The notes under the pieces are model-generated. The model had not been told where the DNA came from. It ran no database searches and saw only the letters and a list, made by a program, of their open reading frames with translations. The translations under genes and the position numbers were made by a program. DNA of 64,000 nt, taken from the NCBI RefSeq assembly GCF_055900595.2, contig NZ_CM148325.1; one strand, given 5' to 3'. Of this stretch, positions 50,712-56,959 are shown piece after piece; positions within the stretch are counted from its first letter, which is position 1, and each line of letters starts with the position of its first letter.

Positions 50712-50804
50712 GGTGAGGTGGCCGAGAGGCTGAAGGCGCTCCCCTGCTAAGGGAGTATGCGGTCAAAAGCTGCATCCGGGGTTCGAATCCCCGCCTCACC
50801 GCCA
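50712..50804 (+). tRNA. serV: tRNA-Ser (anticodon GCU)
   Basis: 93 nt with long variable arm, anticodon loop CU-GCU-AA, 3' CCA encoded. Confidence 0.93.
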
Positions 50805-50807
50805 TTT

Positions 50808-50884
50808 GCATCCGTAGCTCAGCTGGATAGAGTACTCGGCTACGAACCGAGCGGTCGGAGGTTCGAATCCTCCCGGATGCACCA
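50808..50884 (+). tRNA. argV: tRNA-Arg (anticodon ACG), copy 1
   Basis: 77 nt GCATCCGTAGCTCAGCTGGATAGAGTACTCGGCTACGAACCGAG...CACCA; 3 nt after serV. Confidence 0.93.
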
Positions 50885-50947
50885 TATTCTACGAAATCTT
50901 CAGCAATGAAGGTGTCGAAGAGGTGGCGGTACTAACCGCAAGCACCA

Positions 50948-51019
50948 GGGAGGATAACGTTGCTTTAGCAACGGCCCGAAGGGCGAGCCGTAAGGCGAGT
51001 AATCCTCCCGGATGCACCA
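50948..51019 (+). other. tRNA-like structured spacer element ending in a copy of the tRNA-Arg 3' end
   Basis: 72 nt: stem GGGAGGA...TCCTCCC, internal hairpins, terminal aatcctcccggatgcacca identical to tRNA-Arg 3' 19 nt. Confidence 0.45.
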
Positions 51020-51083
51020 TCTCTTACTTGATACGGCTTTAGTAGCGGTATCAAAAAATCTGCAGTAAAGTAAGTTTCCCGAT

Positions 51084-51160
51084 GCATCCGTAGCTCAGCT
51101 GGATAGAGTACTCGGCTACGAACCGAGCGGTCGGAGGTTCGAATCCTCCCGGATGCACCA
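51084..51160 (+). tRNA. argY: tRNA-Arg (anticodon ACG), copy 2
   Basis: 77 nt, identical to copy 1. Confidence 0.92.
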
Positions 51161-51262
51161 TATTCTCCGTAATCATCAGTGATGATGGTTAAGATGGATT
51201 TTCTTATTTGATATGGCTTTAGTAGCGGTATCAATATCAGCAGTAAAATAAGTTTTCCCGAT

Positions 51263-51339
51263 GCATCCGTAGCTCAGCTGGATAGAGTACTCGGCTACGA
51301 ACCGAGCGGTCGGAGGTTCGAATCCTCCCGGATGCACCA
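51263..51339 (+). tRNA. argZ: tRNA-Arg (anticodon ACG), copy 3
   Basis: 77 nt, identical to copy 1. Confidence 0.92.
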
Positions 51340-52586: not shown

Positions 52587-54170
<1,584 letters not shown>

Positions 54171-54175
54171 CAGAA

Positions 54176-54250
54176 AAGAAAAAGGCCACTCGTGAGTGGC
54201 CAAAATTTCATCTCTGAATTCAGGGATGATGATAACAAATGCGCGTCTTT
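54176..54250 (-). ncRNA. micA: small regulatory RNA MicA (SraD)
   Basis: Minus strand reads GAAAGACGCGCATTTGTTATCATCATCCCTGAATTCAGAGATGAAATTTTGGCCACTCACGAGTGGCCTTTTT; between gshA and luxS, divergent from luxS. Confidence 0.85.
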
Positions 54251-54319
54251 CATATACTCAGACTCGCCTGGGAAGAAAGAGTTCAGAAAATTTTTAAAAA
54301 AATTACCGGAGGTGGCTAA

Positions 54320-54835
54320 ATGCCGTTGTTAGATAGCTTCACAGTCGATCATACCCGGATGGAAGCGCCTGCAGTTCGGGTGGCGAAAACAATGAACACC
54401 CCGCATGGCGACGCAATCATCGTGTTCGATCTGCGCTTCTGCGTGCCGAACAAAGAAGTGATGCCAGAAAGAGGGATCCATACCCTGGAGCACCTGTTTG
54501 CTGGTTTTATGCGTAACCATCTTAACGGTAATGGCGTAGAGATTATCGATATCTCGCCAATGGGCTGCCGCACCGGTTTTTATATGAGTCTGATTGGTAC
54601 GCCAGATGAGCAGCGTGTCGCTAATGCCTGGAAAGCGGCAATGGAAGACGTGCTGAAAGTGCAGGATCAGAATCAGATCCCGGAACTGAACGTCTACCAG
54701 TGTGGCACTTACCAGATGCATTCGTTGCAGGAAGCGCAGGATATTGCGCGTAGCATTCTGGAGCGCGATGTACGCATTAACAGTAATGAAGAACTGGCAC
54801 TGCCAAAAGAGAAGTTGCAGGAATTGCACATCTAG
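54320..54835 (+). CDS. luxS: S-ribosylhomocysteine lyase LuxS
   Basis: 171 aa; HTLEHL metal-binding motif. Confidence 0.96.
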
Positions 54836-54852
54836 TCAGTTTAAGCAGAAGA

Positions 54853-54884
54853 GGCCGGGCTGGTGAAATCACCGCCCGGCTTTT
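54853..54884 (+). terminator. luxS rho-independent terminator
   Basis: ggccgggctggtgaaatcaccgcccggc + TTTTATT; convergent gene stop codon abuts it. Confidence 0.7.
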
Positions 54885-54885
54885 A

Positions 54886-55998
54886 TTACCTGTCAGTCAC
54901 CCGATATTCCACGCTATGTGCTTCATCAGGTTGAGGAACTTCCAGCCTTGAGGCCATCCGCATCACGACCGCTTCAGGAACGGCATACTCGCGCCTGGCA
55001 TTTTGCTGCTTCCATTGCGCCCACGGTACTTCCAGATAAACGATTTTTACTCGTGCACCGTAAGCCGTAAATAGACTGATGAGCTGGCTACGCAACTGGC
55101 GGGTAATGTTCGTTGCATTCCAGATGAACGGCTTCTTCTGGCGTAAAAAAACGCGCGCTTCTTCTTTTGCCTGTTGCACAATACGCCCGGTGGCGGTTTT
55201 GTCGTCCGGACTGGCATTGATTCGCCGCCGCATATCATCAAGGCTGATAACGTTCACTCTCTGGCACTGTTCACTGATAAAGCGATCTTTGCCCATACCC
55301 GGTAAACCACACAGCAAAATAACCTCAAAAGATTCAGCCTCCCAGGGAACAAAATCAGGAGAACTTTGTTCATGGGTCAGGTAATGCCAGCGTGCGGAAT
55401 CCGAAGCGAATGAACGCACTTTTCCCCAGCATTGTTGCTCCTGGCAAAATAGCTCGAACAGATCGATGCGTTCCAGCATTGATTGCTGATCATGACAATG
55501 GCGACCAAGCAGATCGGCACGAGCAAGCAAAGCGAGCAGACGTGTGTCGATACGCATTGCAGCCGTGAGCAGCAAACGCTCCGGTTCCGGACGTTCCAGT
55601 AACCATAGCGGTAACCCATGCAGACGCACCAGTGCAACAATTTGCTCGCGTAGCACGAACGGCGTCGGGATATCGCGCCATAAAATTTGTCGGGCCGTCA
55701 ATTCCCCCCGACGAGCATGACCAGGGGACTGAATACGTCCGTTTTCCTGCACGGTAGTACTGCGCTTTTCAACGTCATGCAATAACGCCGCCGCCCATAA
55801 AATTTCCTGCTGCTGAGCGGGGAGTTGCTGAAACTCAGCCATCGCAACGAGTGCGTTCAGCACCATTTCAGTATGCACACCAACGTCGCCTTCACCATGA
55901 TGCTCCGGGTCTTGCGGCGTGTTATGCATATCCTCAACCCAGCTAAAACGCTGGCGTAGCGTCGACCAGCGTTTGTCGTCGGTAAGTTGCCAAATCAT
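54886..55998 (-). CDS. bifunctional HD-domain phosphoesterase / P-loop polynucleotide kinase-like protein (HD-Pnk type)
   Basis: 370 aa; N-terminal HD motifs ([18 protein letters not shown]), C-terminal P-loop-like GLPGMGKD; start overlaps upstream ligase stop (ATGA). Confidence 0.75.
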
Positions 55999-56702
55999 GA
56001 CTGTTCTCCATAAGCGAACTCATGGGCCATCCGCGCCCGTCGCCAGTGGCGTTTCCAGTGCTCGGTGGTTTTGACATGATTTTTGCGCACATACTTGAAG
56101 ACGTTATGCGAAAAGTCAGCGACGGAAAACGCATCACGATTCCGGCTGACAATGCCTTCCAGCGTACAGGGTTGCCCGGTTTGTGTATCCCAGGGATCGA
56201 ACGCGCCGCGCGCATTGGTCAGCGCCAGAAAATCACGTTGCCAGCTTTTTTCATCATTCCCCGGCTGCGGGCCGGAGATTTCGGGAACGCAGGGGAAATC
56301 AAACAGAGCGGCGTAAAACTGCACCTCTTCCCAGCTCAGCCACATATCCTGGCAGCGAACGGCAAACAGGTAAAAGTCCTGTTCCAGGGCGCGGTATTCA
56401 ATGGAATGAACGGCGTAGAGATTTTCACCAAACAGTTCCAGATCGCCGAGATCGTTTTTCAGCAGTTGCCAACGCTGGCGAATTTTATAAGTCCATGCCG
56501 ACTGCGTAGGCGCAGCATGGGAACGGGCAAACACGCCGTAGCGGTTAAGGCAGTTATTTTCGCCGTCGAGTTTTTCTGTATGCACCAATTGCGTGATGGC
56601 CTGTAAATCCTGCCAGTAATCGGCATTAATACGGTCATCGCTGGTGGTGCCAGGGGAGAAAGGATAATGCCAGGTTCTCCCGTATTTCCGTTGGGTATTC
56701 AT
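55995..56702 (-). CDS. ATP-dependent polynucleotide (RNA/DNA) ligase-like nucleotidyltransferase
   Basis: 235 aa; motif I KLDG, motif IV-like LEGIV, motif V-like FKYVRK; first gene of two-gene operon. Confidence 0.75.
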
Positions 56703-56754
56703 AATAATCCATTATTTTGTGTGTAATAAATGTACGCCCGCGAGGGTGCGAGTT

Positions 56755-56922
56755 ATGGGGTTAAAAGAAAAATGTGAGTATCACCCGCGAAAGCGAGGGC
56801 GAAGGAAAAAGAGAATTAACAACCTGAGCGAATGCTCAGAACCGGTTAATGGTGAATGGAAGAGTTTGGGGCGGCGAAAAGATACACCGTTTGAGATGAT
56901 AAAACAACCGTTTACAGAATGA
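56755..56922 (+). CDS. possible small basic protein (55 aa), speculative
   Basis: ATG preceded by GAGGG 8 nt upstream; product MGLKEKCEYHPRKRGRRKKRINNLSECSEP...; divergent from ligase operon; no homology support. Confidence 0.25.
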   Translation: MGLKEKCEYHPRKRGRRKKRINNLSECSEPVNGEWKSLGRRKDTPFEMIKQPFTE

Positions 56923-56924
56923 GC

Positions 56925-56952
56925 AAATAAAAAGGGAGCCGCAGCTCCCTTT
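56925..56952 (-). terminator. emrB rho-independent terminator
   Basis: Minus strand: gggagctgcggctccc followed by TTTTT directly after emrB stop. Confidence 0.7.
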
Positions 56953-56959
56953 GACAACC

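Follow-up and report, generated by a model that had tools for sequence, protein, structure and literature searches.

[quoted passage not shown] This analysis itself established what MicA is here, how it is built and how far it is conserved, and also that the tails following the hairpin on the two strands are asymmetric.

The MicA gene and its neighbors gshA and luxS

The whole window was searched against Rfam with cmscan, and the sole sRNA match was to RF00078 (MicA), on the minus strand from 54251 to 54180. The match scored 83.9 bits against a gathering score of 41 (E = 1.4e-11), covered positions 1–75 of the 75 in the model and contained 0 non-canonical pairs. The preliminary description of this DNA had placed MicA on this strand and had named a region that the covariance model does not score as what would speak against it; the score bears the assignment out. 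The range that it gave for the RNA, 54171–54250, misses the +1 G (54251) by one base and adds about 5 nt of spacer past the 3′ end (~54176). On the minus strand the MicA sequence reads GAAAGACGCGCAUUUGUUAUCAUCAUCCCUGAAUUCAGAGAUGAAAUUUUGGCCACUCACGAGUGGCCUUUUUCUUUU, and it comprises the following elements:

54176–54251, minus strand: micA (MicA/SraD sRNA), with the +1 G at 54251; the RF00078 match covers 54180–54251 and the MG1655 annotation equals 54179–54251
54209–54228, minus strand: MicA stem-loop 1 (nt 24–43), helix 1 100% paired, helix 2 94% paired, one compensatory pair
54202–54208, minus strand: A/U-rich linker AAAUUUU ahead of the terminator, the presumed Hfq-binding module, Hfq binding by MicA being established knowledge
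54184–54201, both strands: shared hairpin GGCCACT / 4-nt loop / AGTGGCC, the stem of the MicA intrinsic terminator; the same DNA folds in the gshA 3′ UTR
54174–54183, minus strand: MicA terminator U-tract UUUUUCUUUU, tail score −5.59, with 7 of 8 positions T in 103 of the 105 species among the matches listed

In the centroid fold, stem-loop 1 and the terminator hairpin are formed and the 5′ 22 nt of MicA are single-stranded, and the RNA thus shows the whole MicA architecture of single-stranded 5′ region, stem-loop 1, A/U linker, terminator hairpin and U-tail. The hairpin has a 7-bp stem with 5 G-C pairs and a 4-nt loop, and its plus-strand stem, GGCCACTCGTGAGTGGCC, had been quoted exactly, at 54184–54201, in the preliminary description. 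The 3′ end at about 54176–54175 on the window comes from published K-12 Term-seq/RNAtag-seq (K-12 2814876–78). Hfq binding, and a MicA RNA of ~72–76 nt under envelope stress or in stationary phase, have been published for the identical K-12 sequence.

Pfam matches and the K-12 map put micA between two genes, on the strand opposite both:

52614–54170, plus strand: gshA (glutamate-cysteine ligase), TTG start, 518 aa, PF04262 at 564 bits, convergent with micA, stop codon at 54168–54170
54320–54835, plus strand: luxS (S-ribosylhomocysteine lyase), PF02664 at 198.8 bits, divergent from micA

The annotation of K-12 MG1655 has the same arrangement of luxS, micA (b4442, 2814802..2814874) and gshA, and a window coordinate equals 2869053 minus the K-12 coordinate. 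Compared with K-12, the gshA–luxS spacer (54171–54319) has 0 mismatches in 149 nt, gshA and luxS differ by 2.4–2.5%, and the block from yqaB to luxS carries 113 mismatches in 3450 nt; third codon positions hold 31 of the 38 gshA mismatches and 10 of the 13 luxS mismatches. The window is part of an E. coli chromosome. Of 5426 complete E. coli genomes, 5423 contain the 241 nt around micA, which match many of them with 100% identity. The mismatch-free spacer and the RF00078 score together indicate that the MicA observation is real and no chance match, and we found no evidence against this identity. It is essentially certain that the locus is the known E. coli sRNA MicA, at the site where it is normally found, the gshA–luxS spacer.

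For one E. coli genome whose spacer is identical (L002, NZ_CP025842.1, 6072–6220), the PGAP record has no feature between gshA and luxS, which indicates that micA is unannotated in typical RefSeq E. coli records, although MG1655 does annotate it. Recognizing micA here is useful for annotation, since most automatically annotated E. coli genomes omit it. Elsewhere in the window, a tRNA cluster (50712–51339) consists of serV and three tRNA-Arg(ACG) copies (50808, 51084 and 51263), versus four tRNA-Arg copies in K-12 (argV, argY, argZ and argQ), a copy-number variation in a tandem tRNA array.

A two-gene cassette beyond luxS

Homology to K-12 reaches 54840, 5 nt beyond the luxS stop, where it breaks to return at 56959; the luxS side of the region is thus conserved up to the cassette, as had been claimed. 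Between luxS and emrB, 2118 bp (54841–56958) replace 57 bp of K-12 and contain two overlapping minus-strand ORFs:

54886–55998, minus strand: 370-aa protein with an N-terminal HD/HDIG domain and a C-terminal AAA_33 kinase-like domain, with a weak likeness to the kinase part of bacterial Pnkp
55995–56702, minus strand: RNA ligase family protein (PF09414)

Together, the two ORFs resemble a pair for the healing and sealing of RNA ends. The cassette was found in 999 of 5426 complete E. coli genomes, as a single chromosomal copy that is mostly 90–95% identical to this one, and it carries its own terminators (54853–54888 and 56931–56952). Directly after luxS, a long hairpin (GCCGGGC...GCCCGGC) followed by TTTTATTA abuts the stop of the convergent HD-kinase ORF, and luxS and this ORF form another convergent pair with one common hairpin. 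The emrB terminator here (AAAGGGAGC-TGCG-GCTCCCTTT, then TTATTT) differs from, and replaces, the hairpin that emrB and luxS share in K-12.

Conservation across Enterobacterales

Species-representative genomes were scanned with a 20-nt pattern of the MicA 5′ end, which gave at least 120 loci. In 107 of the 120 loci among the matches listed, gshA is convergent with micA and lies directly downstream of it, nearly all of these loci also having luxS divergent upstream; further listed loci end too near micA for gshA to be visible. The species counts in this text cover 105 species among the matches listed, drawn from the 107 gshA-convergent loci. Two Dickeya loci (L031 and L057) were excluded from the counts, their longer, imperfect terminator stem having been missed by the simple hairpin finder. 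Six of the 120 listed pattern matches, on contigs of Elusimicrobium, Clostridiales, Lokiarchaeota and Carboxylicivirga and at loci L085 and L116, were chance matches that have no MicA 5′ end, hairpin, gshA or luxS, and all were discarded.

Six of the 7 pairs of the terminator stem (GGCCAC/GTGGCC) are identical in all 105 species among the matches listed, from Escherichia to Edwardsiella, Pantoea and Yersinia. Pair 7 varies in a compensatory manner, being U-A in E. coli, E. albertii and Citrobacter, A-U in most species, and otherwise G-C. Terminator stems typically drift via compensatory changes. The invariant GGCCAC/GTGGCC stem points to a sequence-specific constraint beyond hairpin formation. 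Across 28 diverse sequences, 98.5% of the cells are paired, 2 pairs have changed on both sides and most pairs are invariant. Because most MicA pairs never vary, the support from covariation is modest, and the structure rests mainly on conservation and on the curated Rfam model.

Promoter and ompA seed of MicA

Two promoter elements and the seed were located around the MicA start:

54279–54285, minus strand: σE-type −35 element TGAACTC, positions −34 to −28; the published consensus is GGAACTT (PMC1804206)
54258–54263, minus strand: σE-type −10 element GTCTGA, positions −12 to −7
54228–54244, minus strand: MicA seed, nt 8–24 (GCGCAUUUGUUAUCAUC), which pairs with ompA mRNA at −21 to −6 and is invariant in the alignment

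The motif TGAACTC-N15-GTCTGA has the correct spacing to +1 for σE, and its elements match the σE motifs GGAACTTTT and GTCAAA described by Papenfort et al. 2006 (PMC1804206), in whose work the micA promoter was strictly σE-dependent in Salmonella. Both the −35 core (AAC at −32 to −30) and the −10 core (T-C-T at −11 to −9, with A at −7) are kept in 104–105 of the 105 species among the matches listed. micA is here driven by a promoter that is predicted, from its motifs and their conservation, to be σE-dependent.

Because ompA lies outside the window, the K-12 ompA leader was used for the pairing. The duplex of the seed with the K-12 ompA translation initiation region has an energy of −23.1 kcal/mol, and 7 of 2000 shuffles were equally good; we take this pairing of MicA nt 8–24 with ompA to be the interaction published in 2005. 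A duplex fold of full-length MicA with the whole ompA leader gave uninformative long-range structure and was replaced by that of the seed with the initiation region.

The hairpin seen from the gshA side

The hairpin spans +14 to +31 after the gshA stop, leaving 13 nt between the two, which makes the earlier placement at 1–30 nt after the stop roughly right. The gap is 8–14 nt in 93 of the 105 species among the matches listed. One G+C-rich hairpin, foldable in both transcripts, is thus found between the convergent genes, and inspection of the sequence together with the terminator scan gave no other terminator or structured element between the gshA stop and luxS. On the plus strand, the stem is flanked by AGAAAAGAAAAA upstream and AAAATTTC downstream. 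The A/T runs on both sides that had been described before are therefore literally there, but the A-run touches the stem on both sides of the plus strand, and a U-run consequently follows straight after the stem only on the minus (MicA) strand.

The sequences that follow the hairpin in the two senses were compared. A U-tract comes right after it on the MicA side (UUUUUCUUUU) and is lacking on the gshA side, where the tail, AAAAUUUC, places AAAA directly after the stem. The terminator scan likewise called the hairpin on the minus strand only. By a TransTermHP-style tail score, with the usual threshold of −2.5, the MicA sense scored −5.59 and the gshA sense −1.80, and the threshold was passed by the MicA side in 105 and by the gshA side in 0 of the 105 species among the matches listed. 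The gshA-sense score is worse than the median of random 15-mers (−2.08), and the tail is no better than random in any of the 105 species among the matches listed. The AAA with which it begins in 93 of the 105 species among the matches listed stems from the U-rich linker ahead of the MicA terminator, to which this tail is complementary; in this strain the complement of the linker, AAAAUUU, makes up the non-canonical tail after the hairpin in the gshA sense.

MicA itself, its locus, promoter and targets, its antisense relation to the luxS leader and the genome-wide occurrence of bidirectional terminators are already published. A gshA-side tail that is never U-rich beside an invariant stem would be the only, and small, addition of this comparison to that knowledge. 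The literature search turned up no explicit mention of gshA being served by the MicA terminator.

Published 3′ ends and transcripts across the hairpin

For the 3′-end positions, the luxS P1 transcript and the σE dependence of micA we rely on published work on the identical sequence of K-12, and all expression data are from K-12, not from this strain. Two transcript features were placed on the window from these sources:

54171–54208, plus strand: gshA 3′ UTR to the published 'primary' terminus (K-12 2814845), overlapping the MicA 3′ end by ~33 nt
53988–54319, plus strand: luxS P1 5′ UTR, with its start G at −332, inside gshA (Udekwu 2010, PMC2956633); the G is present at 53988

The TRS paper (PMC10687069) gives a 'Primary' 3′ terminus for gshA whose dominant K-12 position, 2814845, corresponds to 54208 of the window, 7 nt past the stem. 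This terminus appears in three tables of re-analyzed K-12 RNAtag-seq/term-seq with R = 0.51, 0.54 and 0.70, and the MicA terminus at 2814876–78 (window 54177–54175) has R = 0.95–0.999 (PMC10687069), R being a ratio of read starts and not a termination efficiency. It is defined as L/(L+D), the fraction of read starts that fall at the site itself out of all those there and in the next 67 nt, and a lower value means more downstream signal. With these ends, at 54208 and at 54177–54175, the two RNAs overlap by ~33 nt across the hairpin. Adams et al. (PMC7815308) located the MicA end at 2814877 in all three of their conditions. In the gshA sense, one of their conditions gave an end in the hairpin loop, 2814861 (54192), and another gave an end with a high read count at 2814914 (54139, 31 nt before the gshA stop); the 54208 end is absent from their Term-seq. 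The 3′ ends of both transcripts past the hairpin are thus seen in the TRS re-analyses (PMC10687069) and not reproduced in Adams et al. (PMC7815308). Because the gshA-sense ends differ between studies, their positions depend on study and condition and may reflect processing.

No hairpin or U-run precedes the 54139 end. It maps ~150 nt downstream of where luxS P1 transcripts start, at a distance of 37 nt from the 3′ end of MicA, and may belong to a short RNA derived from P1 or mark a site of processing or of collision. We considered a polymerase stalled there head-on against one paused at the MicA terminator, and the fit was poor, since the two points are 37 nt apart and collided polymerases sit 26–31 bp apart (Wang et al. 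2022 / PMC13082048). On the MicA strand, a bicyclomycin-sensitive (Rho-dependent) 3′ end antisense to gshA was mapped at 53808 (−), K-12 2815245 (+), ~370 nt downstream of the MicA terminator (Adams et al., PMC7815308). This suggests that part of the transcription on the MicA strand continues antisense into gshA and is then stopped by Rho.

The luxS P1 transcript has to pass through the hairpin, is antisense to the whole of MicA and undergoes RNase III- and MicA-dependent processing (Udekwu 2010, PMC2956633). The same study reported no evidence for a gshA–luxS polycistronic mRNA, which would argue that gshA termination is more efficient than the tail sequence suggests. The K-12 luxS gene has a strong 3′ end (R 0.93–0.98; PMC10687069) behind a tail, UUAGUUGU, that scores −3.5, which indicates that a weak U-tract can still yield a strong end. 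The preliminary description had called the hairpin a terminator shared with gshA that acts bidirectionally. Sharing agrees with the geometry and has partial experimental support in the K-12 terminus at 54208. Bidirectional action is partly supported by this gshA end past the hairpin and by the luxS example, but was overstated in view of the tail asymmetry, the one-sided terminator scan, the lower R, the ends of Adams et al. and the P1 transcript.

How one hairpin may serve two transcripts

MicA would be produced as a σE-dependent, Hfq-binding sRNA of Enterobacterales, transcribed from 54251 to ~54176. The hairpin, 7 bp long and G+C-rich, together with the UUUUUCUUUU that follows it forms the canonical intrinsic terminator of this RNA, whose nt 8–24 would pair with the region of ribosome binding in ompA mRNA and in further envelope mRNAs and thereby repress them. 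This mechanism is essentially certain. The gshA gene points towards micA and its stop lies 13 nt ahead of the hairpin, so that gshA transcripts contain the hairpin too, and because in this sense it is followed by AAAAUUUC, with no U-tract, it should be only a weak, leaky element for 3′-end formation. For the gshA 3′ ends themselves we infer the following. Some gshA transcripts would end ~7 nt past the hairpin, be it by inefficient hairpin-dependent termination, by termination helped by head-on collision with polymerases transcribing micA, or by processing of read-through RNA, with an exonuclease trimming it to the hairpin or RNase III cutting it. The remaining gshA transcripts, and those from luxS P1, would run on into luxS and be antisense to MicA. 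That collisions can assist termination at hairpins between convergent genes has been published (Wang et al. 2022 and PMC13082048).

A doubtful but possible reading is that the hairpin does not terminate gshA, whose transcripts would read through into luxS or stop elsewhere, for example by Rho, the mapped ends being processing products left by a 3′→5′ exonuclease stalled at the hairpin or by RNase III/RNase E cleavage of the MicA duplex. A gshA-sense tail no better than random in 105 of the 105 species among the matches listed, ends that are heterogeneous across studies (54208, 54192 and 54139), and luxS P1 transcripts that get past the hairpin and undergo MicA-dependent cleavage by RNase III (PMC2956633) all agree with it. 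However, three TRS tables place the 54208 end exactly at the canonical termination distance, 7 nt after the stem (PMC10687069), the K-12 luxS hairpin gives R 0.93–0.98 with a weak U-tract (UUAGUUGU, −3.5), and no evidence has been cited for a gshA–luxS co-transcript (Udekwu, PMC2956633). At the other extreme, it is very improbable that the hairpin is a symmetric and efficient bidirectional intrinsic terminator that ends both MicA and gshA. The missing U-tract, which such a terminator requires, the silence of the scan on the gshA side, the 0 of 105 species among the matches listed that pass the threshold there, the difference in R (0.51–0.70 for gshA versus 0.95–1.0 for MicA; PMC10687069) and the luxS P1 mRNA that must read through (PMC2956633) speak against symmetry, even though the hairpin lies 13 nt from the gshA stop (8–14 nt in 93 of the 105 species among the matches listed), no other terminator stands ahead of luxS, the K-12 gshA 3′ end maps just beyond the hairpin (PMC10687069) and overlapping bidirectional terminators are common in E. 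coli (Wang et al. 2022 and PMC13082048).

We favor the leaky 3′-end element for gshA. The locus also carries a caution: a hairpin beside a convergent stop should not be taken for a bidirectional terminator just because A/T flanks it on either side, and luxS depends partly on transcripts that cross this one. The convergent overlap might further act as a regulatory gate, which we consider unlikely: micA induced by σE would raise the stopping, or the cutting by RNase III, of gshA-sense transcripts including the luxS P1 leader, and so couple envelope stress to transcription from gshA into luxS. The 8–14-nt spacing, the invariant GGCCAC/GTGGCC and the condition-dependent ends at 54192 and 54139 are consistent with such a gate and do not prove it. 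If gshA/luxS read-through were gated by σE in this way, envelope stress would be linked to glutathione and AI-2 metabolism, which is speculation.

Comparison with known systems

The closest system is MicA of K-12 (b4442; RF00078), with which the RNA, its promoter and the whole spacer are identical, as are gene order, orientation, seed, the two hairpins and the U-tail. The element itself shows no difference; divergence in the flanking genes is ~2.5%, and this strain has the 2.1-kb two-gene cassette in place of 57 bp. The position of SraG in the rpsO–pnp spacer is similar (PMC5029454): an sRNA gene lies between two co-oriented genes and is transcribed against them, with RNase III involved. From this position on the opposite strand, such an RNA would be antisense to the 5′ UTR of the downstream gene. 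SraG has an unrelated sequence and other regulators and targets, and the likeness is one of architecture only. RybB shares with MicA a σE promoter, Hfq binding, a 5′ seed, a canonical terminator, the repression of omp mRNAs and the envelope-stress circuit (PMC1804206). It differs in sequence and locus, and no convergent gene is known to share the RybB terminator.

[quoted passage not shown] As at the ynaJ–uspE pair studied by the Liu laboratory (Wang et al. 2022 and PMC13082048), a single hairpin lies between convergent units and 3′ ends are found on its opposite sides, with an overlap of ~33 nt here. Bidirectional terminators of the classical form have an A-tract upstream and a U-tract downstream, and thus a U-tail on both strands, whereas here the U-tail is present on the MicA strand only. 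Compared with them, the gshA side of the MicA hairpin would be leaky, and the downstream gene, luxS, depends on read-through.
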